NCBI GenBank assembly: GCA_963662235.1
Contig: OY759308.1
Span: 2,043,545-2,107,544 of the forward strand
Length of the DNA stretch: 64,000 nucleotides
From: Desulfobacterales bacterium
GTDB taxonomy: Bacteria; Desulfobacterota; Desulfobacteria; Desulfobacterales; G963662235
Direction of reading: 5' to 3'
The notes under the pieces were generated by a model. That model did no database searches, was not told the DNA's origin, and was given only the letters and a program-made list of their open reading frames with translations. Made by a program: the position numbers and the translations under genes. This document shows positions 1 to 58,126 of the stretch, one piece after another; position 1 is the stretch's first letter; each line of letters begins with the position of its first letter.

Positions 1-3000
1 AAGGAGGTTCTCCAAAAAATGCATTTATTGTACTATCACTATAAAATACTTCTTGTGTACCTGTGCTATCTGGCACACCTGTAATTTGAAGTTTTGGATA
101 AATTATAATTGTAAATGGAGTAGTAGTAGCAATCGCATTATTAACATCTTTTGCTTTTATTATAATATTAGTGATTGTGCTATCTTCTAAAGGTGTTCCT
201 GATATTACGCCTGTTTGAGTGTTTAAGGTAAGACCACTATTGAGTGCTACATTCCCTACAAAATAGGTATAAGGGGGCTCGCCAAAAAATGCACTTATTG
301 TAGTGTCACTATAAAAAGCTGATACTGTTCCGGTACTATCAACACTACCTGTAATCTGAAGCTTTGGATAAATTATAATTGTAAATGGAGTAGTGCCAGC
401 TACTGCATTATTAATATCTTTTGCTTTTATTACTATATTAGTTACCGTATCTGCTAAGAGAGGTGTTCCTGATATTAAGCCTGTTTGAGTGTTTAAGGTA
501 AGTCCGCTATTTAACGCTACCTCTCCTACAAAATATGTATAAGGAGGCTCACCAAAAAATGCATTTATTGTGTCGTCACTATAAAAAGCATCAACTGTTC
601 CTGTACTATCTACATTACCTGTAATCTGAATCTTAGGATATATAATAATTGTAAATGGAGTAGTGCCAGCTACCGCATTATTAACATCTTTTACTTTTAT
701 TATTATATTAGTGATTGTGCCATCTAATAAAGGCGTGCCTGATATTACACCTGTTTGAGTGTTTAATGTAAGACCACTATTTAGTGCAATCTCCCCTACA
801 AAATATGTATAAGGTCTTTCGCCAAAAAATGCATTTATTGTACTATCACTATAAAAAACTTCTTGTGTACCTGTGCTATCTACATTTCCTGTAATTTGAA
901 GCTTGGGATAAATTATAATAGTAAATGGAGTTGTACCATCTACCGCATTATTAACATCTTTTGCTTTTATTATGATATTAGTGACTGTACTGTTCTGTAA
1001 AGGTGTACCTGATATTACGCCTGTTTGAGTGTTTAAGGTAAGGCCACTATTTAAATCTACATCCCCTACAAAATAGGTATAAGGGGGCTCACCAAAAAAT
1101 GCATTTATTGTAGTGTCACTATAAAAAGCTGAAACTGTTCCTGTACTATCTACACTACCTGTAATTTTAAGCTTTGGATAAATTACAATTGTAAATGGAG
1201 TGGTGATAGCTTCCGCATTATTAACATCTTTTACTTTTATTATAATATTAGTGATTGTGCTATTCTTTAAAGGCGTACCTGATATTAAACCAGTTTGAGT
1301 ATTTAATGTAAGACCGCTATTTAACACTACCCCCCATACAAAATAGGTATAAGGGGGCTCTCCAAAAAATGCGTTTATTGTAGTGTCACTATAAAAAGCT
1401 GAAACTGTTCCTGTGCTGTCTACATTTCCTGTAATTTGAAGCTTTGGATAAATTATAATTGTAAATGGAGTAGTCTCAGCTACGCACCTATTAACATCTT
1501 TTGCTTTTATTGTTATATTAGTGATTGTTCCATCTGATAAAGGCGTTCCTGATATTACGCCTGTTTGAGTATTTAATGTAAGACCACTATTTAATGTAAC
1601 CTCCCCTACAAAATATGTATATGGAGACTCGCCAGAAAATGCACTTATTGTGCTATCACTATAAAAAGCCGAAACTGTTCCTGTGCTATCTACATTTCCT
1701 GTAATTTGAAGTTTTGGATAAATTACAATTGTAAATGGAGTGGTGATAGCTTCCGCATTATTAACATCTTTAGCCTTTATTATAATATTAGTGACTGTAC
1801 TATCCTTTAAAGGCGTACCTGATATTAAACCAGTTTGAGAGTTTAAGGTTAGTCCACTATTTAACGCTACTCCCCATACAAAATATGTATAAGGAGGCTC
1901 GCCAAAAAATGCATTTATTGTACTATCACTATAAAAACCATTAACTGTTCCTGTACTATCAGCATTTCCTGTAATTTGAAGCTTTGGATAAATTATAATT
2001 GTAAATGGAGTTGTTTTGGCTGTTGCTCTATTAACATCTTTTACTTTTATTATAATATTAGTGACTGTGCTATTTTTTAAAGGTGTACCTGATATTAAAC
2101 CAGTTTGAGTATTTAATGTAAGACCGCTGTTTAACGCCACTTCCCCTACAAAATATGTATAAGGAGGCTCACCAAAAAATGCGTTTATTGTAGTGTCACT
2201 ATAAAAAGCCGATACTGTTCCTGTGCTATCTACATTACCTGTGATTTCAAGCTTGGGATAAATTATAATTGTAAATGGAGTTGTGTCTGCTACCGCATTA
2301 TTAACATCTTTTGCCTTGATTACGATATTAGTGATTGTGCTATCTTCTAAAGGTGTTCCTGATATTTCACCTGTTTGAGTGTTTAATGTAAGGCCACTAT
2401 TTAAATCTACATCCCCTACAAAATAGGTATAAGGAGGCTCACCAAAAAATGCATTTATTGTAGTGTCACTATAAAAAGCACCAACTGTCCCTGTAGTGTC
2501 AGCATCTCCTGTTATTTCGAGTTTTGGGTAAATGATAATCGTAAATGGAGTTGTACCTACTATTGTATCATTAACATCTTTTGCCTTGATTACGATATTA
2601 GTGATTGTGCTATCTTTTAAAGGTGTTCCTGATATTTCACCTGTTTGAGTGTTTAAGGTTAGTCCACTGTTTAAAGCTATATCCCCTACAAAATATGTGT
2701 AAGGAGCTTCTCCAAAAAATGCTTTTATTGTAGTGTCACTATAAAAAGCTGAAACTGTCCCTGTACTGTCTGGCTGACCTGTAATTTGAAGTTTTGGGTA
2801 AATTATAATTGTAAATGGAGTTGTGCCTGCTGTCGCTCTATTAACATCTTTAACTTTTATTATAATATTAGTGACTGTACCCTCTAATAAAGGTGTACCT
2901 GATATTGCACCTGTTTGAGTGTTTAATGTAAGACCGCTGTTTAAAGCCACATCTCCTACAAAATATGTGTAAGGAGGCTCGCCAAAAAATGCATTTATTG

Positions 3001-6000
3001 TAGTGTCACTATAAAAAGCTTCAACTGTTCCTGTACTGTCTACATTACCTGTAATTTGAAGCTTTGGATAAATTACAATTGTAAATGAAGTAGTGCTAGC
3101 TTCTGCATTATTAACATCTTTTGCTTTTATTATTATATTAGTGACTGTGCTATTCGAGAGAGGCGTTCCTGATATTTCGCCTGTTTGAGTGTTTAATGTA
3201 AGACCGCTGTTTAACGCCACTTCCCCTACAAAATAGGTATAAGGAGGCTCACCAAAAAATGCATTTATTGTTGTGTCACTATAAAAAGCCGAAACTGTTC
3301 CTGTGCTATCAACACTGCCTGTAATCTGAAGTTTAGGATAAATTAGAATCGTAAACGGTATACTTTCTGCTATGGCATTATTGACGTCTATCGCCTTTAT
3401 TATTAGATTAGTTACTGTAGAATCTTTTAAAGGTGTGCCAGATATTGCCCCTGTTTGAGTGTTTAATGTTAGTCCGCTATTTAACGCCACATCCCCCATA
3501 GAATATGTGTAAGGAGGCTCGCCAAATAAAGCTTTAATGTTATTATCACTATAAAAAGCTGAAACTGTTCCTGTACTATCAATATTTCCTATGATTTGAA
3601 GCTTTGGATAAATTATAATCGTAAATGGCGTTGTACCCGCTACGCACCTATTAACATCTATAGCTTTTATCACTATATTAGTGATTGTCCCCTCTGATAA
3701 AGGCGTTCCTGATATTAAGCCTGTTTGAGTGTTTAAGGTTAGCCCGCTGTTTAACGCTACATCTCCTACAAAATAGGTGTAAGGTAATTCGCCAGAAAAT
3801 GCATTTATTGTACTATCACTATAAAAAGCCGAAACTGTTCCTGTGCTATCAACACTGCCTGTAATTTCAAGCTTGGGATAAATTATAATAGTAAATGGAG
3901 TGGTCTCTGCTTTTGCATTATTAACATCTTTTGCTTTTATTACGATATTAGTAATTGTTCCATCTAATAAAGGCGTACCTGATATTACGCCTGTTTGAGT
4001 GTTTAATGTAAGACCACTATTTAACGCTACATCCCCTACAAAATATGTATAAGGGGGCTCGCCAAAAAATGCATTTATCGTACTGTCACTATAAAAACCA
4101 TTAACTGTTCCTGTACTGTCAGCATTTCCTGTAATTTGAAGCTTTGGATAAATTATAATCGTAAATGGAGTTGTTTCTGCTGTCGCTCTATTAACATCTT
4201 TTACTTTTATTATAATATTAGTGACTGTGCTATTTTCTGAAGGCGTTCCTGATATTACACCTGTTTGAGTATTTAAGGTTAATCCACTGTTTAAGGCTAC
4301 ACCTTCAATAAAATATGTATAAGGTTTTTCCCCAAAAAATGCATTTATTGTAGTGTCACTATAAAAAGCATCAACTGTTCCTGTACTATCAACACTGCCT
4401 GTAATTTGAAGCTTTGGATAAATTATAATCGTAAATGGCGTTGTACCCGCTACGCACCTATTAACATCTATAGCTTTTATTATAATATTAGTGATTGTTC
4501 CATCTGATAAAGGCGTTCCTGATATTGAGCCTGTTTGAGTGTTTAAGGTTAGCCCGCTGTTTAAAGCTACATCTCCTACAAAATATCTATAAGGTGACTC
4601 GCCAGAAAATGCATTTATTGTACTATCACTATAAAAAGCACCAACTGTTCCTGTGCTATCAACACTGCCTGTAATTTCAAGCTTAGGATAAATTATAATT
4701 GTAAATGGTGTAGTTTCTGCTTTTGCATTATTAACATCTTTTACTTTTATTATAATATTAGTTACTGTGCCTGATAGAAGAGGTGTACCAAACACATCAC
4801 CTGTTTGAGTGTTTAATGTAAGACCGCTGTTTAACGCTACACCTTCAATAAAATATGTATAAGGTGCCTCGCCAAAAAATGCATTTATCGTACTATCACT
4901 ATAAAAACCATTAACTGTTCCTGTACTGTCAGCATTTCCTGTAATTTGAAGCTTTGGATAAATTATAATCGTAAATGGTATAGTCTCTGCTATAGCATTA
5001 TTAACATCTTTTGCTTTTATTATTATATTAGTGATTGTACCATTTGATAAAGGCGTGCCTGATATTTCGCCTGTTTGAGTGTTTAATGTTAGACCGCTAT
5101 TTAAGGCTATATCCCCCATAAAATATGTGTAAGGGGGTTCGCCAAAAAATGCATTTATTGTAGTGTCACTATAAAAAGCTGAAACTGTGCCTGTGCTATC
5201 AACACTTCCTGTAATTTGAAGCTTTGGATAAATTACAATTGTAAATGGAGTAGTCCCCTCTACGCACCTATTAATATCTATAGCTTTTATCACTATATTA
5301 GTGATTGTAGCAGCTGATAGAGGAGTACCTGATATTAAACCTGTTAAAGTGTTTAAGGTTAGCCCGCTGTTTAACGCCACTTCTCCTACAAAATATCTAT
5401 AAGGTGACTCGCCAGAAAATGCGTTTATTGTACTATCACTATAAAAAGCACCAACTGTTCCTGTGCTATCTACACTGCCTGTGATTTCAAGCTTAGGATA
5501 AATTATAATTGTAAATGGTGTAGTTTCTGCTTTTGCATTATTAACATCTTTTACCTTTATTACGATATTAGTGATTGTGCCATTCTTTAAAGGCGTACCT
5601 GATATTACGCCTGTTTGAGTGTTTAATGTTAGACCACTATTTAACGCTACCTCCCCTACAAAATAGGTATAAGGGGGCTCGCCAAAAAATGCATTTATCG
5701 TACTATCACTATAAAAGCCATTAACTGTTCCTGTACTGTCAGCATTTCCTGTAATTTGAAGCTTTGGATAAATTATAATTGTAAATGGGGTTGTTTCTGC
5801 TTTAGCATTATTAACATCTTTTGCTTTGATTATAATATTAGTTACCGTATCTGCTAAGAGAGGCGTGCCTGATATTACGCCTGTTTGAGTGTTTAATGTA
5901 AGTCCACTATTTAACGCCACATTCCCTACAAAATATGTGTAAGGAGGCTCTCCAAAAAATGCGCTTATTGTAGTGTCACTATAAAAAGCATCTTTTGTAC

Positions 6001-6870
6001 CTGTACTATCAACACTTCCTGTAATTTGAAGCTTGGGATAAATTACAATTGTAAATGGCGTTGTGCCCGCTACGCACCTATTAACGTCTATAGCTTTTAT
6101 TATAATATTAGTGATTGTACCGTCCTGTGAAGGCGTACCTGTAATATCACCTGTTTGAGTGTTTAAGGTTAGTCCACTATGTAATGAAACAACATCTCCT
6201 ACAAAATATCTATAAGGTAACTCACCAGAAAATGCTTTTATTGTAGTGTCACTATAAAAAGCACCCTCTGTCCCTGTGCTATCAACACTGCCTGTGATTT
6301 GAAGCTTTGGATAAATTATAATTGTAAACGGTATACTTTCTGCTGTAGCATTATTAACATCTTTTACTTTTATTACTATATCAGTTACTGTACCTGCTAA
6401 ACGAGGTGTGCCTGATATTTTTCCTGTTGAAGTGTTTAATGTAAGACCGCTATTTAAGGCTCCCCCTCCCATAGAATATGTATAGGGACCTTCCCCGCCA
6501 ATAGCTTGAAGATTGCCATCACTATCACTATAGAAACCGTCAACTGTTCCCGTGCTGTCAGCACTTCCTGTAATTTGAAGCTTTGGGAAAATAATAATTG
6601 TAAATGGATTAGTCTCAGCTATCGCACCATTAACATCTTTTGCTTTTATTTTGATATCAGTGAATGTACCATCCTGTGAAGGCGTACCTGTAATCTTGCC
6701 TGTTGCAGGGTCTAATTTTAACCCGATAGGCAGTGGCACATCCCCTACAAAATATGCATAAGGAGACTCACCATCAAAAGCTTGAATAGTGCTGTCACTA
6801 TAAAAACCGTAAACTGTACTTCTATTATATGGCGACCCTGTAATTTGAAGTTTTGGATAAATTATTAATG
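1..6870 (-). repeat. Tandem array of 270-bp (90-codon) coding repeats inside the giant CDS
   Basis: The marker gtaaa(t/c)gg recurs at 111, 381, 651 ... 6051 (23 anchors, exactly 270 bp apart), then at 6324 (+273), 6600 (+276) and 6870 (+270). All offsets are multiples of 3. Confidence 0.95.
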
Positions 6871-9800
6871 TAAAAGGAGCTGATGAGATTGTTCTGCCAT
6901 TTTGATCAGTAATAGAGATAACAATATTGCTCACTGTACCATAAGTTGTAGGCGTACCAAAAACAGAACCAGCACTTAATCCAGCAGGTAAATTTTTGTT
7001 ACTAAATACATATGGAGTCTTACCTCCTGAAAAATTAGGGGAACTATTACTATAATAAGCACCTTGTGTTAACGTATTATCAGAATCGGCAGGAACTCCA
7101 CTAACTTTAAGCTTGGCATATATCGTCATTTTATATGCTGGAAGTTCTGCACTCCTATTTGATTGGTCTGTAGCTTTTATAATAATATCATCTGATGTTC
7201 CAGCTATACCTTCTTTAATAGTGCCCGATATTATACCTGTAGTGCTATTAATAACTAAATTTTTTGGTAAAGTACTGTTCTTATCAGAGTATGTAAAACT
7301 ATTACTACTATCCTCTGTAGCAAAACCTGTAGCCTTAATACCACTATAACTAAGTGAATCGCCCTCATAAGCTTCAAGAGGCGGAGAACCTGTAATACTT
7401 AGTTGATACACCTTAATGCTAATCGCAGAAGTAAGCTTATAATTACCCGCACTATCTACCACTTTAAATATTATACTATTAAATTCACCTTGTTTTTTGA
7501 GAGTTCCAGCAACCTGACCATTTGAATCTAAAGATAAACCTGTAGGCAAAATACCACTATACAATGAAAAAGTGTATGGAGATGTTCCGCCAGTAGCTAT
7601 TATGTTAAAAGTAGAATAAGTATATCCTACATAACCATACGCAGTGGCAGAAGGATTAAAAGAAACAGACAGTGCTGTAGTAGTAGTAGTCGAAGTAGAA
7701 GAACTACCATTCCCACTACTGGTAGTAGTAGCAGTTGTATCGGTTGAAGTAATAGCATCATCTTGAGATGTGCCTCCTAACCCATCAACTACAACAACAT
7801 CGTCACTATAGACATTATCATCTGGTATGATTATATAATTATCTTCTGCCCCTCCCTTAGCACCAACTTCAGTCACTTGTGGTGCTGATGTCGGACTTGC
7901 AGAAGGGGTACTCTCTTTAGTTTCAGGTTTTTTAGTAACATCATAAAAAGAGGTAGAAACTAACTCTTTACCAACACTATTTTTGCCTTTTACAGCTTTA
8001 ATTCTGATTAAAACATTCCCTTCAAACTCATCGGGAACACTAATTTTAAAACTATTACATCTACTCCAGCTAACACCACCATCTAAACTTTTCTCATATA
8101 GAGTAATATTTTTAAAACCATCTACAGGAGCAAATCTTAAATATCTTCCAGCTTCATTATGCTCTATCTCAATTGGAGCCAAAATGGCTTTGGTAAAAGG
8201 GTTGCTTTCAGTAATAGTCCCTTCGCCATTTGTATTCCTTATTGCACGTTTAACTAAAAAAACAGTGCCATCAATATTGCCAGCATCTATCGTATAGTTA
8301 CCCGTATCTTTCCAACTATTACCTTTATCAAGACTATATTTATAAAAATAGGGAGAATCACTTTTTGAAAGCGGTGCAAAAACAAGAGTATTTGTTTCAT
8401 CATCGACACTAACTATCTCTGGTCCATCAGGTTTATTAAGAAAAAGAGAAGATTTTGAAATAAGACCGTTTGTGTTTTTATCTTTCTTTGCTTTAACACG
8501 AATCTCAACAAAACGCGTATAATTACCAACATTTATCTTGTTGCTGGTAGCATCTTGCCAAGTTTTGTCATTACTAAACCTATATTGATATGATGCAGCG
8601 TCAGGATAATTCTTTAAAAATTTAAACTCTAATATATCCTTTTCATCATCCTCTTTTAAAATTTCTACGGTTTCAGGACAATCAAGACTGCTTTTCCGTA
8701 CTTCTACAGAAACAATATCAAAACTGCTTCTCTTTAAATTATCTAAAGCACTAACTTTAAAAACTAAACGTTTACTACTATTAAATTTTGGGGCTATAAA
8801 TGAACAAGATAGATTATTGCTTTCTTCTGAATTTAGCTCTACCAAATCGTCAGGGTCATCAAAGACTTGACTCCATATTGTCTGCACACTCTCTCCAGAA
8901 TTTAATCCTTTTTTATGTACAGCTTTTAGAACGACTTTAACGTCACTCTCTATCCCTGTTAAATTCTCTCCTGCACTTATATAATTATAATTAGTTACAT
9001 TTTTTAAACTTATAGAAGAGGGGTCGTCCTTTTTACTTTTCTTCTTATCTTCTTTTTTGTTTTTTTTGTTCTTCTCTTCCTTTTTCTTAGCATTATCAGA
9101 TAGTAACGACACATTATTAACATTAAGACCGCTCTTATTCCTTTTGTCATTTAAAACTCTATAAATAGACCTTGCAAGTTCTTGCTTAAGAATAAAATCG
9201 GTAATAATGGCTTTTTTGCCATCACGTTCAATGGATTTCATCAAAGTGTTAAAAAAATCTATTATGCAACTGCTTAAACTCTGTTTACCGTCATTTTGAT
9301 TAAGTGCATAGTCAGAAAAAGCATAAAGTAATACTCCATACTCTTTATTGCTATTTTTTGTGCTTTTTAAAGAAGGACTAAAAGGGTCATAAGGAATAGC
9401 GCTTACAACATTAAAACTTTCATCACTTGAAAACGCACTGGAAAAAAGAGTTACAGTCTCTTCTATGTTTTTTTGTCTAAACCCTCTTTCCATTGCAATA
9501 AGCTTTTGCACCACCAATTCAGTTAATGGCGTAACAGCTACAGAATCACCAGAAACAATGTTTGAAACAACTGAACGCAAAGAAAAATCAGCAGGTAAAA
9601 AATACTTCACACCTGATACAGCATCTACAATTCCATCAGGAAAAGTCGCTTCAATTAAAAATGGCTTGTTTGCATATTCAGGCGGCAAAGAAAGGAAAAA
9701 ACCTCCTTTCTTGTCTGTCATGGTTGTGGCATCCTCTTTTGTATCATATAAGAGCTTACCATCTCTTATGCCACGTATAGTAATGTTGGCGAGGTTGCCT

Positions 9801-10357: not shown

Positions 10358-10374
10358 AGACCTTTGCACATAGC
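10358..10374 (+). mobile_element. Solo terminus of the AGACCTTTGCACATA repeat family (copy A)
   Basis: agacctttgcacatagc, 276 nt upstream of the giant CDS start; followed by a G-rich run at 10381-10400. Confidence 0.6.
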
Positions 10375-13201: not shown

Positions 13202-13232
13202 AGACCTTTGCACATACTGTTTTTTGTGAAAA
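13202..13232 (+). mobile_element. Truncated copy (B) of the repeat family: left terminus plus ~15 bp of internal sequence
   Basis: agacctttgcacatactgttttttgtgaaaaa matches the left end of the full copies; no convincing right terminus. Confidence 0.5.
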
Positions 13233-13245
13233 ACACACAAGACTT

Positions 13246-14130: not shown

Positions 14131-14290
14131 AGACCTTTGCACATAATGTTTTTTATGAAAAAACAGTGTTTTTTCCGTAAAACATTAACCTTTGATAATT
14201 TTACAAAAACCTCTAAAACCCTTATAAAGACTTACACTTTTCTTTGCTTTTGTTTTGGGCTTGACGTATTAATATACTGCTACACCACAA
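14131..14290 (+). mobile_element. Long-form copy (C) of the repeat family; right terminus missing
   Basis: The left terminus agacctttgcacataatg, the shared internal core and the ~75-bp extra module (acttacacttttctttgcttttgttttgggcttgacgtattaatatactgctacaccacaaaa) align with copy I at 37444-37636. Confidence 0.8.
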
Positions 14291-14295
14291 AAATC

Positions 14296-19462: not shown

Positions 19463-19478
19463 AGACCTTTACACATAA
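19463..19478 (+). mobile_element. Solo terminus (copy D) of the repeat family
   Basis: agacctttacacataa, 20 nt upstream of the fliH start codon. Confidence 0.55.
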
Positions 19479-19499
19479 ATAATATTTTGCAAAAAACCT

Positions 19500-22476: not shown

Positions 22477-22599
22477 AGACCTTGGCACATAGCTTAATTT
22501 TTTATAAGGTTTTTTTGAGGTTTTTGTAAAATTTTAAAAAAGCTAATATTTTACTCAAAACCACTATTTCCCCATAAAAAACATTATGTACAAAAGTCT
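22477..22599 (-). mobile_element. Full copy (E, 123 bp) of the repeat family, inverted relative to the other full copies, between fliE and fliF
   Basis: Termini agaccttggcacatagc ... cattatgtacaaaagtct. The internal sequence is the reverse complement of the core of copies F/I/K. Flanks are TAAACTTA / TAAAATTG (6/8 identical). Confidence 0.85.
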
Positions 22600-24014: not shown

Positions 24015-25376
24015 CTAAGAACTATTTGTTTCATTATACTCTTTAAGCTTGTTTCTAAGGGTTCTAACACTTATCCCAAGCAATTTAGAAGCTTTTGTCC
24101 TATTTCCTACTGTTTTATCGAGAGTGTTTAAAATTGCTTTTTTTTCAATTTCATAAAGAGAACCCACATCATCAAAGTTGGGGACAGATAATATACTCTG
24201 ACTTTCAGCCACTGTATTATCTTCATTATAAAGTAAAAGAGTATCACTCTCTATAGTATCGCCATCCGAGAATAAAATTGCTCTTCTTATAATATTTTCA
24301 AGCTCCCTTACATTCCCTTTAAAAGGATGCGAAGCCAATAAATCTATAGCTTCTTGGGTCAATTTACTGACACTCTTGTTATCAATTTTATTATATTTGT
24401 TTATAAAATATTCACAAAGAGGCTTAATATCGTCTCTTCTATGACGAAGAGGAATAATTTTAATCGGAACGACATTAAGTCTATAAAACAAATCTTCTCT
24501 GAACTCTTTGTTTGCTACACTCTCTTCTATATTTCTATTAGTTGTAGCAACAATTCTAACATCAACTGGAATAGTTTTAAGCCCTCCTATCCTTTCGAGT
24601 TCTCGCTCCTGTATAACACGAAGTATCTTAGCTTGAAGCTTATAGTCCATCTCAGTTATTTCATCTAAAAATATAGTGCCACCATCTGCAAACTCAAATT
24701 TACCAATTTTCTTTGAAGTAGCACCTGTAAACGATCCTTTCTCATGACCAAAAAGTTCACTTTCAAGAAGGTTTTCTGGCAAGACTGCACAATTGACTGC
24801 AACAAAATTGTTATCTTTTCTTTGGCTATTTTGATGTATAAAATTTGCTAAGAGCTCTTTGCCTGTACCACTTTCTCCCTGTATTAAAACAGAAGCATTA
24901 CTGTTAGAGACTTTTTTAACAATATCGAGCATCTTTAACATACTTTTATTTTTTGTTATTATCTCTTTTGAACCTTTTTGTGTTTTTAGTTCAGGCTCCT
25001 TACTATCCCTCTCTCCAAATACTCTTTCTAATGTTAAGCTAAGTTGTTCGGGAACAATGGGCTTTATAAAAAAATCGAGTGCTCCATTACGCATAGCATT
25101 AACAGCATTATCAACGGAAGGTCTTTCGGAAATGAATAAAACTTTTATCTCTTGGTTGTTTAAAAGGATTGTATTTAATAAATCAAAAGGCTCTATATCT
25201 TGAAGTTCAAAACTTACTATAAAAAGAAAAAAAGAGTTTTCTTTGATATATTTTATAGCATCAATACTATCTATTGCTGTAACTACACTAAACCCCCAGC
25301 TCTCTAAAAGATCTGAAATAAACTCTTTAGTTTTTACATCGTTTTCGAGTAAAAGGATTTTATTATTTGATTGCAT
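24015..25376 (-). CDS. Sigma-54-dependent transcriptional activator (NtrC family; candidate flagellar regulator)
   Basis: Receiver-like N-terminus; AAA+ sigma-54 interaction domain (GESGTGKE, ESELFGHEKGSFTGA); Fis-type HTH (NRTKASKLLGISVRTLRNKL). The track start at 25397 is a GTG inside repeat copy F; the first ATG (MQSNNK..) is at 25376. Confidence 0.9.
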   Translation of the reverse strand: MQSNNKILLLENDVKTKEFISDLLESWGFSVVTAIDSIDAIKYIKENSFFLFIVSFELQDIEPFDLLNTILLNNQEIKVLFISERPSVDNAVNAMRNGALDFFIKPIVPEQLSLTLERVFGERDSKEPELKTQKGSKEIITKNKSMLKMLDIVKKVSNSNASVLIQGESGTGKELLANFIHQNSQRKDNNFVAVNCAVLPENLLESELFGHEKGSFTGATSKKIGKFEFADGGTIFLDEITEMDYKLQAKILRVIQERELERIGGLKTIPVDVRIVATTNRNIEESVANKEFREDLFYRLNVVPIKIIPLRHRRDDIKPLCEYFINKYNKIDNKSVSKLTQEAIDLLASHPFKGNVRELENIIRRAILFSDGDTIESDTLLLYNEDNTVAESQSILSVPNFDDVGSLYEIEKKAILNTLDKTVGNRTKASKLLGISVRTLRNKLKEYNETNSS

Positions 25377-25385
25377 AATTTTTTG

Positions 25386-25499
25386 AGACCTTTGCACATA
25401 ATATTTTTTAAGAAAAAATAGTGGTTTTTTTGTAAATATTAACTTTTGACAATTTTACAAAAACCTCTAAAACCCTTATAAAGCTATGTGCAAAGGTCT
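25386..25499 (+). mobile_element. Full copy (F, 114 bp) of the repeat family
   Basis: agacctttgcacataat...ctatgtgcaaaggtct with 15-nt perfect terminal inverted repeats. Internal TTGACA / TTTACA ... TATAAA hexamers. The outer end lies 9 nt from the activator ATG. Confidence 0.9.
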
Positions 25500-31300: not shown

Positions 31301-31329
31301 AAACTTTTGCACATTATGTACAAAGGTAT
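31301..31329. mobile_element. Minimal (29 bp) form (G) of the repeat family: two termini abutting
   Basis: aaacttttgcacattatgtacaaaggtat is a near-palindrome equal to left terminus plus right terminus with no internal core; 18 nt upstream of the porG ATG. Confidence 0.6.
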
Positions 31330-34444: not shown

Positions 34445-34734
34445 TAGGGGCGGGGTTGCCCCGCCATTTCAATATTCTGCCATTTCCGTATAATTTGTTT
34501 TTTTATTGGGCACGGCACGCCGTGCCCCTACCTTGTTCACCATTTCAATATAATTTTCTTACCATTTTGATATAAATTGTTTTACCGTTGGGCTACACGC
34601 ATTTCCTGATGATAATTCCATATTGATTTGATTAAATACCATAAAGATACAAAATCTTGTAGAGACAGGTCGCGACCTGTCTCTACGGGAAAATATAATT
34701 TTCAACACAAGGGCGGGTTTGGTCTAGTCCCTAC
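34445..34734. repeat. Cluster of GC-rich hairpins / palindromes with GTAGGGG / CCCCTAC-type flanks in an AT-rich spacer
   Basis: Hairpins at 34449-34465 (7 bp) and 34508-34527 (GGGCACGG-CACG-CCGTGCCC); a perfect 28-nt palindrome GTAGAGACAGGTCGCGACCTGTCTCTAC at 34669-34696; a weaker GGGCGGG...GTCCCTAC at 34711-34734. The motif ccatttcaatat recurs after hairpins 1 and 2. Confidence 0.8.
34447..34467 (+). terminator. Candidate intrinsic terminator of glyQS (GC hairpin 1)
   Basis: GGCGGGG-TTG-CCCCGCC (34449-34465) lies 20 nt after the glyS stop, but the following tract (atttcaatatt) is only weakly U-rich. Confidence 0.4.
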
Positions 34735-34747
34735 GGTTATGATTGCG

Positions 34748-34765
34748 AGATCTTTGCACATAATG
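34748..34765 (+). mobile_element. Solo terminus (copy H) of the repeat family
   Basis: agatctttgcacataatg, 49 nt upstream of the DUF4143 ATPase start. This is the only copy whose inner side faces the adjacent gene. Confidence 0.55.
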
Positions 34766-34814
34766 TTATTGTTTTAGCCTTGCAAATTTAATTTAAGATG
34801 TTAAATATGCAAGG

Positions 34815-35987
34815 ATGTATAAACGGACACTCAAACATAAAATCATCGAAAAACTAAAGCAGAACCCTGCTGTTGCAATTCTTGGACCTCGTCAGGTTGG
34901 CAAAACCACCCTCGCTTTAGAAATTGGTAAAAATATACCTTCTGTATATCTTGACCTTGAAAATTTGGAAGATTTGCAAAAACTGCAAGACCCTACACAC
35001 TATCTTGAACTCCATTCAGATAAACTTGTTATTTTAGACGAAATTCAGCGTTACCCTAATTTATTTATGTCTTTGCGTGGAGTTATCGATGCAAGAAGAA
35101 GAGAAGGCAGGGGCAACGGAAAATTTCTTGTGCTTGGCTCTGCTTCAAACGACCTTTTAAAACAAAGCTCTGAAAGCCTTGCAGGACGTATAAGCTATTT
35201 AGAACTTAGCGGACTTAAGCCTTATGAAATTAAAAGCAAAAACCATAAAGATATTGTTAAGCTTTGGATACGAGGAGGATTTCCCAACAGTTACCTTGCA
35301 TCTAATGATTTAATAAGTGATGAGTGGCGTAAAGATTTTATTAAAACATATTTAGAAAGAGATATACAAGCACTTGGCTCCAGAATCCCTGCTACAACGC
35401 TTATGAGATTTTGGACAATGCTGGCACACTCTCAAGGAGAGCTGTTTAATGCTTCAAAACTTGCAAGCTCCCTTGGAGTAGAAAGTGTTACAGTGAGTCG
35501 TTATTCAGATTTAATGGCAGACCTTTTGCTCGTTAGAAGATTAGAGCCTTGGTTTGGTAATATTAAAAAAAGATTAGTAAAATCTCCAAGAGTTTACATA
35601 AGAGACAGTGGAATTGTTCATACACTCCTTCAAATACCAAACTATGAAAAATTATTGGGTCATCCCATACTTGGGAAAAGCTGGGAAGGGTTTATAATTG
35701 AAAAAATTATCTCGAGCCTCCCTTCTGGTATAAATCCGTTTTTTTATAGAACTTCAGCAGGAGCAGAAATAGACTTAGTATTAGAGCTTGGACTGAATAA
35801 TTATTGGGCAATCGAAATTAAGCATAGCAAAACACCCTCTCTTCAAAAAGGCTTTCATATCGCTTGTGAAGATTTAAAGGTAAAACGCAAATTTGTTATT
35901 TATACAGGGGAAGAAGGTTTTTCGATTGGAAACAAAACAACTGCAACATCTCTTTTGCTTTTTTTAAAAGAGCTGAAAAATATTTAA
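34815..35987 (+). CDS. AAA+ ATPase (AAA_14 + DUF4143 architecture)
   Basis: 390 aa; Walker A GPRQVGKTT, Walker B VILDEIQ; the C-terminal half resembles a DUF4143 / restriction-endonuclease-like fold. Confidence 0.75.
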   Translation: MYKRTLKHKIIEKLKQNPAVAILGPRQVGKTTLALEIGKNIPSVYLDLENLEDLQKLQDPTHYLELHSDKLVILDEIQRYPNLFMSLRGVIDARRREGRGNGKFLVLGSASNDLLKQSSESLAGRISYLELSGLKPYEIKSKNHKDIVKLWIRGGFPNSYLASNDLISDEWRKDFIKTYLERDIQALGSRIPATTLMRFWTMLAHSQGELFNASKLASSLGVESVTVSRYSDLMADLLLVRRLEPWFGNIKKRLVKSPRVYIRDSGIVHTLLQIPNYEKLLGHPILGKSWEGFIIEKIISSLPSGINPFFYRTSAGAEIDLVLELGLNNYWAIEIKHSKTPSLQKGFHIACEDLKVKRKFVIYTGEEGFSIGNKTTATSLLLFLKELKNI

Positions 35988-36009
35988 TCACTCTAAAAAA
36001 AGAACTTAT

Positions 36010-37317: not shown

Positions 37318-37443
37318 TATGTAGCCTTAAAACCTTGGAACTAAACTTTTTTTGATAGATAGAAGAAACCTATTATTATAAAGAGCCCTATTGTTTTTCT
37401 CTAAAATATATACAGATGATTATGACACTATCAGACATAATCA

Positions 37444-37636
37444 AGACCTTTGCACATAATATTTTTATGGAAAAATAATGTTTTTGAAAAAATATTAACT
37501 TTTGATATTTTTTTACCAAAACTTCTAAAACCCCTATAAAGACTTACGCTCTCTTTTGCTTTTATTTTGGGTTCGACGTATAAAAATACTACTTCACCAC
37601 AAAATAAAAACAAAATAGAGCTATGTGCAAAGGTCT
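37444..37636 (+). mobile_element. Archetypal long-form copy (I, 193 bp) of the repeat family with a perfect 8-bp flanking duplication
   Basis: Termini AGACCTTTGCACATA / TATGTGCAAAGGTCT (15/15 complementary). Flanked by CATAATCA at 37436-37443 and again at 37637-37644. Confidence 0.92.
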
Positions 37637-37672
37637 CATAATCATCTGCTATATTTAAATAAAGTGCAAAAA

Positions 37673-38104: not shown

Positions 38105-38358
38105 TATCTTTAAAACTCCTTTAAATTTTTTTATTTAAGAATATCGGGTTTCCATAAATAAGTTTAACAAAAAACTTTATATTAATAGTTCTGATAAAAA
38201 TTTAAAAAAACAAAACCATATATAAAGTTTTGATAGGTTATACGTAAAGAAGAAAAAAATCCTTCTTTTTTTTAGAAAAAAATTTTTAATTGTTTGAAAG
38301 CAAGGTTAAATTGCAACAATTAAGATGTTAAAAAAATTATTGAAAGCACTTAACTCAA

Positions 38359-38381
38359 TATGTATAGTGCAATTATACATA
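38359..38381 (+). promoter_or_regulatory. Inverted repeat (candidate operator/promoter) upstream of the antitoxin gene
   Basis: TATGTATA-gtgcaat-TATACATA, 20 nt upstream of the ATG; followed by the SD-like AAGGGGGGG. Confidence 0.45.
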
Positions 38382-38400
38382 AAAAAAAGGGGGGGCGTAT

Positions 38401-38643
38401 ATGAAAGCAACTATTGTTGATTTAAGATATAAAATGAATGATGTACTTAAAGCTTTAGATAGAAATGAACAAGTAACCGTTTTTTATCGGGGAAAAGCTA
38501 AAGGAACTTTAATTCCATTAGGGAAAAAATCCCAATTAAAAATTTCCGAACATCCTTTTTTTGGTATGTCGTTAAGTAGCAATGAAAAAACCGTACAGGA
38601 TGTGATGGACGATTTAAGGAGCTCAAGATACGATGATATTTGA
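38401..38643 (+). CDS. Type II antitoxin (Phd/YefM-like)
   Basis: 80 aa; MKATIVDLRYKMNDVLKALDRNEQVTVFYRGKAKGTLIP; overlaps the downstream PIN gene by 11 nt. Confidence 0.7.
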   Translation: MKATIVDLRYKMNDVLKALDRNEQVTVFYRGKAKGTLIPLGKKSQLKISEHPFFGMSLSSNEKTVQDVMDDLRSSRYDDI

Positions 38644-39010
38644 TACAGATATTTTCATATGGGCACAAAAGGGTAATGAAAAAGCTGCAAAAATGCTGGA
38701 AAGCGATGATGAAAGATTCCTTTCCGTTCAAACATATATGGAACTTTTGCAATGTGCTAAAAATAAACTCCAACATAAATATATAAAAGATTTTATATCT
38801 TCTTTTGGCTTTACTGTCTTGCCACTAACAGAAAATATCGGTCATCGTGCATCAATTTATGTTGAAGAATACACTCTATCTTCAAATCTTAGAGCTGGCG
38901 ATGCAATAATCGCAGCCACCACTGTTGAAAACAGTTTAACCCTTGCTTCAAGCAATACAAAGCATTTTAAGGCTATTAAAGAGCTTCGATTAAAAACCTT
39001 CAAACCATAA
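38633..39010 (+). CDS. PIN-domain toxin (VapC-like)
   Basis: 125 aa; MIFDTDIFIW (N-terminal acidic residues), ..YMELLQ.., RAGDAIIAATT, SSNTKHF. Confidence 0.8.
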   Translation: MIFDTDIFIWAQKGNEKAAKMLESDDERFLSVQTYMELLQCAKNKLQHKYIKDFISSFGFTVLPLTENIGHRASIYVEEYTLSSNLRAGDAIIAATTVENSLTLASSNTKHFKAIKELRLKTFKP

Positions 39011-39025
39011 ACTGGAATTTTAAAT

Positions 39026-41322: not shown

Positions 41323-41442
41323 AGAGCTTTGCATATAATGTTTTTTTTTATGAAAAAAAATAGTAGTTTTTAATAAAATATCAATTTTTGATAATTTTAT
41401 AAAAGATTTAAAAAAACCCTATAAAGACTGAAGCTCTCTCTT
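41323..41442 (+). mobile_element. Left part of a long-form copy (J) of the repeat family, interrupted near the DUF559 gene 3' end
   Basis: agagctttgcatataatg..., shared core ...ccctataaagactgaagctctctctttc aligns with copy I as far as ~41440 and then diverges. Confidence 0.65.
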
Positions 41443-41443
41443 T

Positions 41444-41894: not shown

Positions 41895-41936
41895 TTCGCC
41901 TTCGGCGAACCCCCTTAATCCCCCTTAAAAGGGGGA
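41895..41936 (-). repeat. GC-element copy b (small TTCGCC hairpin + C5 run + C5-loop-G5 hairpin), inverted relative to copy a
   Basis: ttcgccttcggcgaacccccttaatcccccttaaaaggggga. Its reverse complement is near-identical to 58083-58126. Confidence 0.85.
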
Positions 41937-42009
41937 GATAAGATAAAAAATCCACCCATTAAAAATGGCAAATTAAGATACAAACTATCAAATAAAAATA
42001 TTTTAAAAA

Positions 42010-43439: not shown

Positions 43440-43629
43440 AACTATTATAAACCTTAATATTTAAATTGAGTTTCCTTTTTGTCTAATACTAAAAAATTAC
43501 TCTAAATTTTTTAGAAAAACTTTTCTTTAAAAACAATTAAAAAATCCTTTACAATAAAAGTGTTTGCACAATACTTAATTTTTTATACAAAAAATTCATT
43601 TTTAGTACAAAAATAAATAAAAAAAACTT

Positions 43630-45177
43630 ATGAAACACAAAACCTATATTATCCTTTTTTTCTTAATCTTTTTTACTCTTAAAAATATAACGCCTGTATA
43701 TTCTGGAGTTTCACAAGAAGAATTAATTTTTTTACCAATTAAAACAGAAACTTTAGATAAATTTGAAAAAGAATTTTATGAGGCTGTTTTTATAGAATCC
43801 CTTGCTAAAAAAAACACTGTTTATTCTGGACCCAAGGTGTTGGAAAAAATAGATAAGATAGGTAGTTCTAAACAAATATGTACAAGTAAAGACTGTTTAA
43901 GACAAGTCGCATTAGAGTTTAATGGATCACTTATAGGACAAGCTAAAATAGAAAAAGATAACCAAAATTTGTATACGATATCGTTTATAGTTAAAGATAT
44001 TTTTGAAGACAAAACTATATACAGTAAAACCTCCTTTTGTGATAATTGTAATAAGGCAGATATCTCACAAAAAATAAAAACACTATTTTTAAAAGAAGAG
44101 GAAAACGTTGATGCAGGAGTGTTAAATATAGAAACTGAACCTCAAAAAGCTATAATTACAATCTTTTCTAAAAACAAAGAAGTAAAAACAGAAATTTCAC
44201 CTTCCCTAATAAAGCTTAGACCTGACAATTATAAAGTTATTATAAAAAAAAACAAATACATCCCTTATGAGCAAGAAGTCCTTATCGAAAAAGGTAAAAT
44301 GAAAAATATAACTATTGAGCTAAAACAAATATTAGGGCGAATTTTAATAATTTCCGACGAAGACGGCGCTGATGTTTTTATAAATGGCGAAAAAAAAGGC
44401 ACAACACCTTATAAAACAAAAGAATTACCAGCAGGTGAATACGAAATAAAAGCACAAACTAAAAACAAATATGGCTATGAAAAAGTATTATTAGAAAAAA
44501 ATGGCGAAACCCAAAAGATACAAATTAAGCTAAAATCTAAAAAAGAAAAAATAATAAAAAAAGAGAGAAAGGATAGTGATTTTAATTTTAATTTTGGGAT
44601 AAATGGCAGACTTGATTTTTCTTATGATTTTGTAAAAACTGGGGATGAAAGAGAGCTTATAACACCATTTGGTACAGATTTAAGAATGTTTGTAGGACAA
44701 AAAAATGGAATCAATATCGGAATAGGTTACTTCATCGGAAGAGCTACTTACGACAAAATAAATACCAATCTTAGTTCTAATGAGTATGTTAGTGAAGGCG
44801 ATATAGATAAAAAAGAGATTAATTTTTATCTTGGCAAACATATCCAAAATAAAAACAATAGTTTTTATTGGTACCTATCGTACACAAATGAAGAACTTAC
44901 AGGCAAATACAAAATTGAAAACTCTAATATCAGAGATGAATATGAAACTGAAGTCAAAGGAGCAGGCATAGGAATAGGTTTTTGGACAGTATTGAATCAA
45001 AAAAGTTGTTTAGGTCAAAGTCTCTCTTACGGAGTAGATCTTAAATATTTAAAATATGAATATGAAAAATTTAAATACAAAAGCAAAAATTCATCAGAAG
45101 AACACAATATAGATATTAGTAATGAAGATGAACAAAATATTTTTGTATTAAGTATATTTACAGGAATTGCATTTTAA
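43630..45177 (+). CDS. Outer-membrane protein: FlgO/TolB-N-like N-domain + two PEGA domains + C-terminal beta-barrel-like region
   Basis: Signal peptide; PEGA-like segments (NIETEPQKAIITIF..., DGADVFINGEKKGTTPYKTKELPAGEYEIKA..GYE); C-terminal alternating aromatic pattern ending ...FTGIAF. Confidence 0.6.
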   Translation: MKHKTYIILFFLIFFTLKNITPVYSGVSQEELIFLPIKTETLDKFEKEFYEAVFIESLAKKNTVYSGPKVLEKIDKIGSSKQICTSKDCLRQVALEFNGSLIGQAKIEKDNQNLYTISFIVKDIFEDKTIYSKTSFCDNCNKADISQKIKTLFLKEEENVDAGVLNIETEPQKAIITIFSKNKEVKTEISPSLIKLRPDNYKVIIKKNKYIPYEQEVLIEKGKMKNITIELKQILGRILIISDEDGADVFINGEKKGTTPYKTKELPAGEYEIKAQTKNKYGYEKVLLEKNGETQKIQIKLKSKKEKIIKKERKDSDFNFNFGINGRLDFSYDFVKTGDERELITPFGTDLRMFVGQKNGINIGIGYFIGRATYDKINTNLSSNEYVSEGDIDKKEINFYLGKHIQNKNNSFYWYLSYTNEELTGKYKIENSNIRDEYETEVKGAGIGIGFWTVLNQKSCLGQSLSYGVDLKYLKYEYEKFKYKSKNSSEEHNIDISNEDEQNIFVLSIFTGIAF

Positions 45178-45180
45178 ACA

Positions 45181-46212
45181 ATGAAAATACTAAAAAGATT
45201 AAAAATATTATTTATTGTTTTTTTAATGTTTAATTTTAGCTGTGCTAAACAAACTATTTTTAAAAATAAGTGCAATGTAACTCAAAAAAAACCTAAATGG
45301 GCAAACAGCACTAATATGATAGAAATTCCTGGCTATTATGTCGGTGTTGGATATGCCGAAAATAAAAAATTTGAAGAGGCAAAATCAAAAGCTATAAGGA
45401 ACCTTTCAGAAAAAATATCTGCGGATATAAAAAGTGAAGGGGAAATATCGGAAGAACAAAAGTTAAATAGTTCTTTTAAAAAAGAAGCAAAATTTAAAAT
45501 AAATATAAGCTCCAATATTAAGCTTTATGATTTAAAACAAGATTCACAATGGATAGATGAAAACTGCAATGTTTGGGTAAGATTTAAAATAGAAAAAAAC
45601 ATTGCTCACAATATATTAAAATTTCAAGAAGCTGAAGATTTATATAAAATCGCAAAAGAGTCAAAAAATGGTTTAGAGACAAGAATAAGCAGCATTAAAA
45701 AAGCTTTAAATATTATTGAAACAATAGATTTTTCAACTCTTAGAACAAATAATAAAAAAAAATTTTACATAACGATTTATAGGAATCTAAAAGAAGATTT
45801 AGAGAAAATAATACAGGGAAGAGAAGTTGTATATTTTGTAAAATCACCTAATGAATCATTCAATAACTTATCAGAAGCTTTAATAGCTAAACTCATAAAC
45901 GATAATAAAGGTGGTTTATACGAAAAAAAAAACAACTGCGAAAAAATTGAAACTTGTTTTTTAATTGCAAGAGAAAATCTGGCAAAAAAAATGGTTATAG
46001 TTAAGATAGATTCTAAGATAAAGGATGACGGTATGCTTTGTATGGGCATTCTAAATATAGACATATATCCATACGATGTTAAAAGCGAAAAAATATTAAA
46101 AAAACCTTTTAATATAAATCGCAAACTTTTTTCTTATAACAAAAACTCTTTTAACTGGGAAAATACAATTAAAGAAGAGTTAACAAAAGAAGATGTTTTA
46201 TACACTTATTAA
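45181..46212 (+). CDS. LPP20/FlgP-like putative lipoprotein
   Basis: Signal sequence ending ..FNFSC; YYVGVGYAENKKFEEAKSKAIRNLSEKISADIKSEG resembles the LPP20 family; starts 3 nt after the upstream stop. Confidence 0.45.
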   Translation: MKILKRLKILFIVFLMFNFSCAKQTIFKNKCNVTQKKPKWANSTNMIEIPGYYVGVGYAENKKFEEAKSKAIRNLSEKISADIKSEGEISEEQKLNSSFKKEAKFKINISSNIKLYDLKQDSQWIDENCNVWVRFKIEKNIAHNILKFQEAEDLYKIAKESKNGLETRISSIKKALNIIETIDFSTLRTNNKKKFYITIYRNLKEDLEKIIQGREVVYFVKSPNESFNNLSEALIAKLINDNKGGLYEKKNNCEKIETCFLIARENLAKKMVIVKIDSKIKDDGMLCMGILNIDIYPYDVKSEKILKKPFNINRKLFSYNKNSFNWENTIKEELTKEDVLYTY

Positions 46213-46214
46213 AA

Positions 46215-46742
46215 ATGAAAAAAATAATATTTATAATAGCCATTTTTGCTTTAAGCAATTCATCCTGTGACAGCGGTTCATCAGCTGAAGATATAGCGCA
46301 AAATAACCCTGAAATTGGAACAACTAACAGCACTTATGCAACTGCTCTTGATAATTCGAATCTTACTTTTTCGTCAACTTCAGGGAATAATGCCAATTGG
46401 TGCACAACAACATCTCAATATTACGCAGGAGGAAGCTCATTAAGAAGTGGTTTAATTGGAAACTCTCAAACAAGCTGTATCCAAACAACAATTCCAAGAG
46501 CAGGAACTTTTAGCTTTTATTGGAAAGTCTCTTCCGAAAACTCTCGTGATTATTTGAAATTTTATTATAACAATTCTGTTCAAAATACTATTTCAGGAAC
46601 AACAAGTTGGGCACAAAAAACATATAATTATACGGGTTCTTATGCCGCCACATTAAAATGGTGTTATATTAAAGATTCTTCAATATCTCAAGGGAGTGAT
46701 GCTGGCTGGATTGATGATGTTCAGTTTACTGCTTCTAATTAA
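46215..46742 (+). CDS. Small secreted/lipo-protein with a jelly-roll (CUB/MAM-like) domain pattern
   Basis: Signal sequence ending ..SNSSC; ...GTFSFYWKVSSENSRDYLKFYYNN...WAQKTYNY..ATLKWCYIKDSSISQGSDAGWIDDVQF. Confidence 0.4.
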   Translation: MKKIIFIIAIFALSNSSCDSGSSAEDIAQNNPEIGTTNSTYATALDNSNLTFSSTSGNNANWCTTTSQYYAGGSSLRSGLIGNSQTSCIQTTIPRAGTFSFYWKVSSENSRDYLKFYYNNSVQNTISGTTSWAQKTYNYTGSYAATLKWCYIKDSSISQGSDAGWIDDVQFTASN

Positions 46743-46750
46743 ATAAGTTT

Positions 46751-49625: not shown

Positions 49626-49746
49626 AGACCTTTACACATACACATAGTTTTTTTATGAAAAAAGAGTGGTTTTGAAAAAATATTAACTTTTAGTAATTTT
49701 ACAAAAATCTCTAAAAACTCTAATATAGAGCCATATGTAAAGGTCT
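49626..49746 (+). mobile_element. Full copy (K, 121 bp) of the repeat family
   Basis: agacctttacacata...catatgtaaaggtct; flanks TGATTAAG (49618-49625) / TGATTAAA (49747-49754), 7/8 identical; outer end 21 nt from the sbcB ATG. Confidence 0.9.
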
Positions 49747-50707: not shown

Positions 50708-50736
50708 AATTAAATATTTAAACTCCAACTTATATG

Positions 50737-50809
50737 AGACCTTTGCACATAATGTTTTTTATGAAAAAATAGTGGGTTTTTTGTGAAAAAATATTATATG
50801 CAAAGATCT
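50737..50809 (+). mobile_element. Short-form copy (L, 73 bp) of the repeat family
   Basis: agacctttgcacataatgttttttatgaaaaaatagtggg...tatatgcaaagatct; flanks CTTATATG / CTTATTTT (6/8); 29 nt upstream of the rplM ATG. Confidence 0.85.
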
Positions 50810-50833
50810 CTTATTTTTATAAAACCCTACTTT

Positions 50834-57924: not shown

Positions 57925-58092
57925 ATTTTTAAAGGTTAGTTTTTTCTTATCTCTCTTTTAAGGGTTTGGTTTTTTCTTATCTCCCCCTTTTAAGGGTTTG
58001 GTTGTTTTTCTTATCTCCCCTTTTTAAGGGTTTGTTGTTTTTCTTATCTCCCACTTTTAAGGGTTTGGTTGTTTTTCTTATCTCCCCCTTTT
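57925..58092 (+). repeat. Tandem repeat, ~5 units of 32-34 bp (consensus TAAGGGTTTGGTTGTTTTTCTTATCTCCCCCTTT)
   Basis: taaggg starts at 57959, 57991, 58025, 58058 and 58092, with a degenerate taaagg at 57930. Each unit reproduces the left arm and loop of the terminal hairpin. Confidence 0.9.
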
Positions 58093-58126
58093 AAGGGGGA
58101 TTAAGGGGGTTCGCCGAAAGGCGAAA
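58083..58126 (+). repeat. GC-element copy d (C5-loop-G5 hairpin + G5 run + TTCGCC-GAAA-GGCGAA hairpin)
   Basis: tcccccttttaagggggattaagggggttcgccgaaaggcgaa is the reverse complement of 41895-41936 apart from loop length. Confidence 0.85.

Follow-up and report, generated by a model that had tools for sequence, protein, structure and literature searches.

Does a 193-bp intergenic element that stands between two identical 8-mers belong to a family of mobile DNA, and if so, how long is the target duplication that it makes and from which family of insertion sequences (IS) does it derive? The element lies in a 64,000-nucleotide stretch of a Desulfobacterales genome (assembly GCA_963662235.1, contig OY759308.1, positions 2,043,545 to 2,107,544), the whole of which is called the window here and is numbered from its first letter. 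A preliminary description of the window, made from the sequence alone, had proposed that the element and its relatives arose by transposition with an 8-bp target duplication, which would narrow the candidate parents to IS families that make duplications of that length. [quoted passage not shown]

Structure of the element and its family

The element (37444-37636, + strand), designated copy C, is a long form with a core of 193 bp. Its left terminal inverted repeat, AGACCTTTGCACATA (37444-37458, + strand), which continues with ATAAT and is called the 'AT end', and its right one (37622-37636, - strand), the 'GC end' that follows TAGAGC, are exact reverse complements of each other. Re-reading of the sequence confirmed that the 8-mer CATAATCA directly adjoins both of these perfect 15-nt ends, at 37436-37443 on the left and at 37637-37644 on the right. 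The base 5' of the left terminus is A (37443), as opposed to G in most copies, and the base after the right terminus is C (37637), which completes GGTCTC. On one side of copy C an EF-hand gene ends, with its stop codon at 37673, and on the other a gene for an extracytoplasmic function (ECF) sigma factor starts, at 37317; a close relative has an ortholog of copy C between the same flanks. The only open reading frames (ORFs) in it are spurious, at most 60 amino acids long and started by TTG or ATG. Alignment and folding delimit a 79-nt module within the long form (37542-37620), whose arms (37548-37569 and 37600-37621, the second reaching one base beyond the module) form a hairpin with a 22-bp stem. 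This module is common to copy C, to a truncated copy at 14131 and to two copies of the relative, G and H, and is absent from the forms of 114-123 bp.

The 15-mer AGACCTTTGCACATA has 20 matches in the window at up to 3 mismatches, versus 2.27 expected, and none of 100 shuffles reached 20. The loci that have these ends and the body in common number 12 in the 64 kb, and all of them are intergenic and without coding capacity: no ORF of at least 80 amino acids is confined to any copy, and one over-extended ORF call with a GTG start (24015-25397; GVG...) runs 12 nt into copy B. Alignment of the copies distinguishes the two ends, the AT end reading AGACCTTTGCACATA-ATGTTTTTTATGAAAAAATAGTGG... and the GC end ...TTTTACAAAAACCTCTAAAACCCTTATAAAGC-TATGTGCAAAGGTCT. 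Copies are 73, 114-123 or 193 bp long, apart from truncated remnants, and their 15-nt inverted ends are perfect in copies C and B and carry 1-3 mismatches in copies A, D and E. Immediately beyond the AT end, 10 of the 12 window copies have a G, a conservation that marks this base as part of the element; at the GC end the corresponding position is occupied by T or C.

Four further copies in the window have both ends. Copy A (22477-22599, - strand), 123 bp long and in the opposite orientation, lies between fliE and fliF, with the flanks TAAACTTA (22469) and TAAAATTG (22600). Copy B (25386-25499, + strand; 114 bp) is situated between a Memo-like gene and a gene for a sigma-54 activator and is flanked by ATTTTTTG and TTTTTATA. 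Copy D (49626-49746, + strand; 121 bp, 114 bp in the relative) is found downstream of rpsI between TGATTAAG (49618) and TGATTAAA (49747), and copy E (50737-50809, + strand; 73 bp), a near-perfect palindrome of two AT ends, stands upstream of rplM, at a distance of 30 nt from the start codon, between CTTATATG (50729) and CTTATTTT (50810). The near-repeats that the preliminary description had quoted at the other copies were correct throughout, in sequence as in position.

Strain polymorphism, empty sites and the length of the duplication

The close relative is represented by contig_2 (1.6 Mb) of ENA ERZ21862600, which was reached through an L13 homolog and three proteins identical in both strains; four of its loci (L125, L126, L128 and L270) align to window positions 2708-60535 at 97-99% identity. 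Over these ~58 kb, the two strains differ in the presence of a family member at 4 of the 14 loci in their union. Copies B and E are found in the window only and copies G and H in the relative only, and both strains have orthologs of copies A, C, D and F and of the remnants. Three of the four polymorphisms (B, G and H) have an allele without the element for comparison and exhibit a short duplication, and the fourth (E) resembles a footprint. Empty sites in a related strain, which the preliminary description had named as a check, thus exist for copy B in the relative and for copies G and H in the window. At copy B, the relative has the empty site GCATAATTTTCTAATTATTC, and the window reads GCATAATTTTTTG, the 114-bp core and TTTTTATAATTATTC, a net gain of 122 nt (114 + 8); the very copy that had been set aside as unconvincing is therefore a proven insertion. 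Copy G, a 193-bp long form, reads ...AAAAAACTTT-G, core, T-ACTTTATATT in the relative, and its empty site, ACTTT (38174-38178), lies in AAAAAACTTTATATT in the window. Copy H, likewise a 193-bp long form, reads ...ATATAAATTG, core, AAAATTGTTTT, and its empty site, AAATT(G) (34574-34579), lies in ATATAAATTGTTTT. The net gain is 200 nt at each of these two sites, so that, counted from the core bounded by the 15-nt ends, the gains over the sequenced empty sites are +8 (B), +7 (G) and +7 (H). Since copy H, found in the relative only, is 96.4% identical to copy C, the subfamily to which copy C belongs transposed recently.

Comparison of the flanking 8-mers with controls, another check named in the preliminary description, drew on seven insertions independent of one another, of which the window supplied five and the relative two. 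The paired flanks agree at 39 of 56 positions, versus 17.8 +/- 3.6 in AT-rich control pairs, and 39 was never reached in 20000 controls or derangements. Together with the four strain polymorphisms, the empty sites, the hairpin restored at copy C and the existence of an IS with the same 15-nt end (see below), this result, far above chance, strongly upholds the proposal that the family arose by transposition. A duplication of 8 bp, in contrast, is not supported: positions 2-7 of the 8-nt frame match in 27 of 30 cases and positions 1 and 8 in only 5 of 10, and copies G and H gain core + 7. When one extra base is assigned to the element at each end of the 15-nt core (the 16-nt frame), the flanks read AATTTT/AAGTTT at copy A (5/6), TTTTTT/TTTTAT at copy B (5/6), ATAATC/ATAATC at copy C (6/6), GATTAA/GATTAA at copy D (6/6, a perfect 6-bp duplication), TTATAT/TTATTT at copy E (5/6), ACTTT/ACTTT at copy G (5/5) and AATTT/AATTT at copy H (5/5). 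The total is 37 of 40, with a duplication of 6 bp for copies A-E and of 5 bp for copies G and H; copy H can be read equally well with 6 bp (AAATTG), since the target base that comes next is the same as the element's terminal base. The 8-mer at copy C is best read as a 6-bp duplication, likely ATAATC (37437-37442 and 37638-37643), plus two coincident bases, the element's own A...C probably being the same as the target bases, a coincidence whose chance we estimate at roughly 0.05-0.1. Alternatively, a single event with an 8-bp stagger and loss of the terminal bases could have produced copy C, a course that the data cannot separate from the 6-bp reading.

The site of copy E differs from a simple pair of filled and empty alleles. 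The window (50729-50817) reads CCAA-CTTATATG, copy E, CTTATTTT-TAT, and the relative (L125, 9947-10000) reads CCAA-ACTATATA-ACTATTTT-TAT; the element is gone, the two 8-mers are kept in tandem, and the total length of the flanks is the same. The site in the relative looks like an excision footprint, in which the 6-bp duplication is followed by 2 nt and by the 6-bp duplication again. Between the strains, the two 8-mers have undergone an identical change of two bases (CT versus AC), which one shared insertion followed by excision does not predict; two independent insertions at one position on different alleles, or templated conversion, are the alternatives.

The target site of copy C

The target that copy C disrupted (37413-37648, - strand) can be read directly from the sequence. 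Deletion of copy C and one repeat (201 nt) joins CAGATGATTATG-ACACTATCAGA-CATAATCA to TCTG and yields CAGATGATTATG-N11-CATAATCATCTG, a perfect hairpin with a 12-bp stem, which is followed on the transcribed (-) strand by TATATATTTTAG, a T-rich tract; the rebuilt site folds at -21.3 kcal/mol (z = -5.3). Because removal of the element and one repeat restores the hairpin, copy C must have been inserted into one arm of a terminator-like structure, which lies downstream of the EF-hand gene and upstream of the ECF sigma operon. In a distant relative (L083), whose sigma factor is 66% identical, only 52 nt separate the corresponding EF-hand and sigma genes, versus 355 nt in the window.

An IS5-type terminus and an IS that shares it

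Judged by its sequence, the terminus (G)AGACCTTTGCACATA is of the IS5-family GAGACCTTTGCA class and carries the motif GAGACC(T/A)TTGCA that defines it. Published ends of this kind include those of ISNme1 (GAGACCTTTGCAAAA), ISPg1 (GAGACCATTGCA) and ISPg4 (GAGACTGTTGCA), and that of the BrickBuilt MITE (GAGACCTTCGCA) (PMC4596501, Table 2); ISNme1 is the proposed parent of the Neisseria ATR MITE (PMC4596501). Since the published IS5-family ends begin one base outside the 15-mer of the preliminary description, with an additional G, we place the start of the terminus there as well. The parent is accordingly to be sought in the IS5 family and not, as had been suggested, among families that make 8-bp duplications.

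A search for an IS with matching termini, the third check that had been named, led to other metagenomes and not to the source genome. Of the 120 loci that a scan of metagenomes with GAGACCTTTGCACATA yielded, most were chance matches and three were informative. In one (L133), inverted termini 1.37 kb apart enclose a 351-amino-acid ORF with the domains DUF772 (PF05598) and DDE_Tnp_1 (PF01609), which scores 239.7 bits against the IS5-family model NF033581 (cutoff 140). Homologs of this transposase with 70-71% identity are encoded by a 1372-bp IS whose transposase is 348-351 amino acids long and which has as its left end AGACCTTTGCACATA, all 15 nt of the MITE terminus, in at least 8 different flanks. 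The likeness between the MITE and this IS stops at the terminus, which makes the MITE one of type II. The second locus (L151) is a 181-bp MITE on an unrelated contig of 50% GC, with GAGACC...GGTCTC ends and GAACT on both sides, and the third (L139) is a contig bounded by two outward-facing termini. A 23-nt pattern of the left end had no match in genome contigs or metagenome contigs, and the 15-mer had 41 single matches in viral contigs, consistent with chance; the sole inverted pair among these (L089) does not bound a transposase.

Several observations weigh against the assignment to a recently mobile IS5-type MITE with a 5-6 bp duplication. There is no transposase gene in the window, and a search for homologs of the L133 type found none on the 2.13-Mb source contig or on the 1.6-Mb contig of the relative. 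A related IS with trustworthy flanks (L272) has, in the 16-nt frame, a 4-bp duplication, AACT, not one of 5-6 bp, and another (L260) fits 4 bp (TTGA), in the frame of the 15-nt core only; the remaining short-read contigs with matching IS have inconsistent flanks, probably because they are chimeric assemblies across the repeat, and these two were the only usable ones. The 5-6 bp of the MITE likewise depart from the 4 bp typical of this IS5 subgroup in ISfinder. Furthermore, the length is not uniform among the copies (5 versus 6 bp), a perfect repeat of 8 bp accords with copy C itself, the duplication at copy B differs from the empty allele at one position (base 5 is T on the left, A on the right and C in the relative), and the copy E site of the relative is not a simple empty site.

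Alternative explanations

The reading closest to the preliminary description, that of a MITE from an IS family that makes 8-bp duplications (e.g., IS6, ISL3, IS1595 or IS66), with 15-nt termini and decayed 8-bp repeats at the other copies, could draw on the perfect repeat at copy C (8/8), the net gain of core + 8 at copy B and the two tandem 8-mers at the E site of the relative. The terminus also loosely resembles what we take to be the IS6-type end (GG..CTGTTGCAAA). We nevertheless consider this origin improbable. The agreement of 5/10 at positions 1 and 8, versus 27/30 at positions 2-7, is not that of a uniform 8-bp duplication, copies G and H, the youngest two for which an empty site has been sequenced, gain core + 7, and the flanking G, conserved in 10 of 12 copies, is part of the element. 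In addition, the terminus is identical over 15 nt to that of an IS whose transposase passes the IS5-family model, and its first 12 nt match published IS5-family ends (PMC4596501). Still further from the evidence is the view that the copies are intergenic palindromes maintained by the host, like REP/BIME or a repeated operator or terminator, which were spread by recombination and resemble each other in their flanks by chance. All copies are indeed intergenic, they fold as long hairpins (z = -4 to -9), and 7 of 9 have the same orientation relative to transcription, a bias that is not significant. Flank repeats far above those of AT-rich controls, discrete presence or absence in the two strains with a duplication and intact empty sites, ends identical to those of a transposase-bearing IS, and lengths that vary by internal deletion, as in decaying mobile DNA, all contradict this view, which we regard as very improbable.

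A different question is whether the IS5-type MITE does more than move. The long form might carry functional cargo, with the 79-nt hairpin acting as a small RNA, terminator or attenuator, and its insertions might rewire the ECF sigma, rplM-rpsI and flagellar operons. Conservation of the module in copies C, G, H and 14131, its 22-bp stem, the fact that it is long-form copies (H, probably G) that make up the subfamily with recent activity, and the presence of copies inside operons and just upstream of start codons would fit such a role. A permissive Rfam search of the element, however, gave no family match and only hairpin-like sub-threshold matches, on both strands, copy C contains no promoter-like site on the gene strand, and conservation of the module may just reflect its young age, and we therefore hold cargo of this kind to be unlikely. 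The broadest proposal joins several of these features and is to be treated as doubtful: an active family that both excises and inserts, prefers hairpin or palindromic targets such as terminators, carries the 79-nt hairpin as functional cargo that alters neighbouring operons, and depends on a transposase that may be absent from the genome or only distantly related, which would imply cross-mobilisation. If this were true, the E site would be a genuine excision footprint, of which few have been documented for bacterial IS or MITEs.

Some further candidates were examined and rejected. REP/BIME sequences are ~35 nt long, make no duplication and show no discrete strain-specific insertions, and the present copies have 73-193 bp, duplications and empty sites. 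Correia/NEMIS elements make a TA duplication and have 26-nt termini of the TATAGTGGATTAA type; the termini found here differ from these, and the duplication is 5-6 bp. The TTGCA in the terminus was considered as part of a sigma-54 promoter, whose -24 GG would then lie in the variable flank, and nothing convincing was seen on the gene strand as an outward sigma-70 promoter. A literature match of the terminus in a table of P. gingivalis oligonucleotides is a coincidence, as it lies in an artificial tail.

Remnants and neighbouring features

The remaining loci of the family are degenerate or truncated. Copy F (31301-31329, both strains) is a 29-bp palindrome of two degenerate, abutting termini (AAACTTTTGCACAT and TATGTACAAAGGTAT) in the spacer between two divergent genes, that of the POR gamma subunit and glyQ, and is probably a relic after loss of the interior, possibly by near-precise loss of an element. 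A truncated long-form copy (14131-14295, + strand) is without a right terminus but has the left one, with the body and the greater part of the 79-nt module, and abuts the stop codon of a TPR gene. Another truncated copy (41323-41443, + strand, both strains) has a left terminus with 2 mismatches and the body and likewise no right terminus. Only the left terminus remains at 13202-13245 (+ strand, both strains), in a 91-nt spacer, and a solo GC-end terminus occupies 10358-10372 (+ strand, both strains) between convergent genes. At the remnant between fliG and fliH (19463-19498, + strand), the window is 50 nt shorter than the relative (reverse complement of L128, 6815-6900) owing to a deletion between TATTTT repeats; an internal loss of this kind illustrates the origin of solo ends. 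Members of the family break up the flagellar operon flgB-flgC-fliE-fliF-fliG-fliH at two points. Upstream of a gene for a DUF4143 ATPase lies a short copy or remnant in degenerate form (34748-34814, + strand; a remnant in both strains).

That ATPase gene (DUF4143/AAA_14, 34815-35987, in the region 34580-35994) is found in the window only. The matching spacer of the relative (L126, 13269-13911) holds copy H and ~470 nt with several GC-rich perfect palindromes, e.g., GGGGCGTATAGCTATACGCCCC, which are conspicuous in a genome of 30% GC; one of them, GTAGAGACAGGTCGCGACCTGTCTCTAC, is shared with the window (~34655-34682). At 38305-39020 the window has a vapBC-like pair (38401-39010), made up of a gene for a PIN-domain toxin and a small ORF upstream of it; the relative has ~30 nt in place of this pair, and its copy G lies ~130 nt from this locus. 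A 3.25-kb block (43492-46744), on the strand opposite to its neighbours, is likewise confined to the window and has clean junctions; its genes are those of a PEGA-domain protein (43630-45177) and of an LPP20-like lipoprotein (45181-46212), along with an ORF of 175 amino acids. Positions 1-6900 contain ~25 tandem 270-nt (90-amino-acid) repeats of 75-90% identity within a giant gene, whose product in the relative is 19,513 amino acids long as called (L270, from 13074 onward). A second, unrelated intergenic repeat family is represented by 98-nt inverted copies at 41901-41998 and 58021-58118, which are 80% identical, contain CCCTTAAAAGGGGGAGATAAG... and also occur in the relative. Rfam (at the gathering threshold) and ARAGORN gave no match in the window, and related loci found through GlyS have at most 49% identity, belong mostly to metagenome-assembled genomes of Desulfobacterales and show no synteny.

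Comparison with known systems and biological meaning

Small size (73-193 bp) without a transposase, inverted ends, a duplication backed by empty sites, and dispersed copies that are polymorphic between strains identify the family as a MITE. Its members could have spread as follows. An IS5-family DDE transposase supplied in trans, wherever its gene may lie, would bind both inverted ends, would cut out the element or copy it, so that transfer may be of the cut-and-paste or the copy-paste kind, and would insert it at staggered nicks in intergenic DNA that is rich in AT and often palindromic. The target duplication of 5-6 bp would then result from repair of the stagger, and the copies would afterwards decay by internal deletion.

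Among the systems already described, ATR of Neisseria meningitidis, a type II MITE, and its IS5-family counterpart ISNme1 have the same first 12 nt of the terminus, GAGACCTTTGCA (PMC4596501). ATR is also AT-rich, intergenic, non-coding, present in tens of copies and similar to an IS at its termini only. The body sequence, however, is unrelated, and the host here is flagellated, has ~30% GC and yields best GlyS and L13 matches that are Desulfobacterota-like at only 45-73% identity. BrickBuilt and MITEPgRS of Porphyromonas gingivalis, with ISPg1 and ISPg4 of the IS5 family, have termini of the same class (GAGACCTTCGCA and GAGACCATTGCA), and BrickBuilt shares with the present family two asymmetric halves, a 'leader' and a 'tail', and strain-specific filled and empty sites with a short duplication (GAAA at BrickBuilt_4). 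BrickBuilt is larger and contains a minisatellite, whereas the present family has the 79-nt hairpin module instead, and the duplication at the one proven BrickBuilt site is 4 bp, as opposed to 5-6 bp here. The 1372-bp IS5-family IS (L133, L250-L269; e.g., JAMIKX010000093.1 of GCA_035912275.1) resembles the MITE in its ends: besides a left end that is the same over 15/15 nt, it has in the L133 copy an end, GAGACCTTTGCACATAG, that agrees with the GC end of the MITE over 17 nt. It differs in having its own transposase and in its flanking bases (A...T versus G...T/C), and a 47%-identical relative of it, in a large and reliably assembled contig, has a 4-bp duplication. Tourist/mPing elements (PIF-Harbinger, the eukaryotic relatives of IS5) are likewise short and non-coding, with termini that bind transposase, and an IS5-like DDE enzyme mobilises them in trans, with AT-rich DNA as the target. 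They are eukaryotic, with a 3-bp TAA/TTA duplication and usually precise excision, and the likeness meant here is one of mode of action.

IS5-type MITEs with this terminus having already been described in Neisseria and Porphyromonas, the family leaves the understanding of transposition unchanged, and what stands out in it is the recent activity, the insertion into a hairpin and the footprint-like site. For the organism, it explains the dense intergenic repeats, on account of which short-read assemblies break at these points, as do the short-read contigs of the same strain (Logan SRR34447573) inside copy C. If the window is representative, an extrapolation to the 2.1-Mb genome gives a few hundred copies. 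Four insertion differences in ~58 kb between strains that are 97-99% identical make the family a sensitive strain marker, and they indicate that its transposase is active now or was so recently. Finally, as judged from where the copies lie, namely in the flagellar operon, 30 nt before the start of rplM and in a terminator-like hairpin, they could affect the expression of neighbouring genes.

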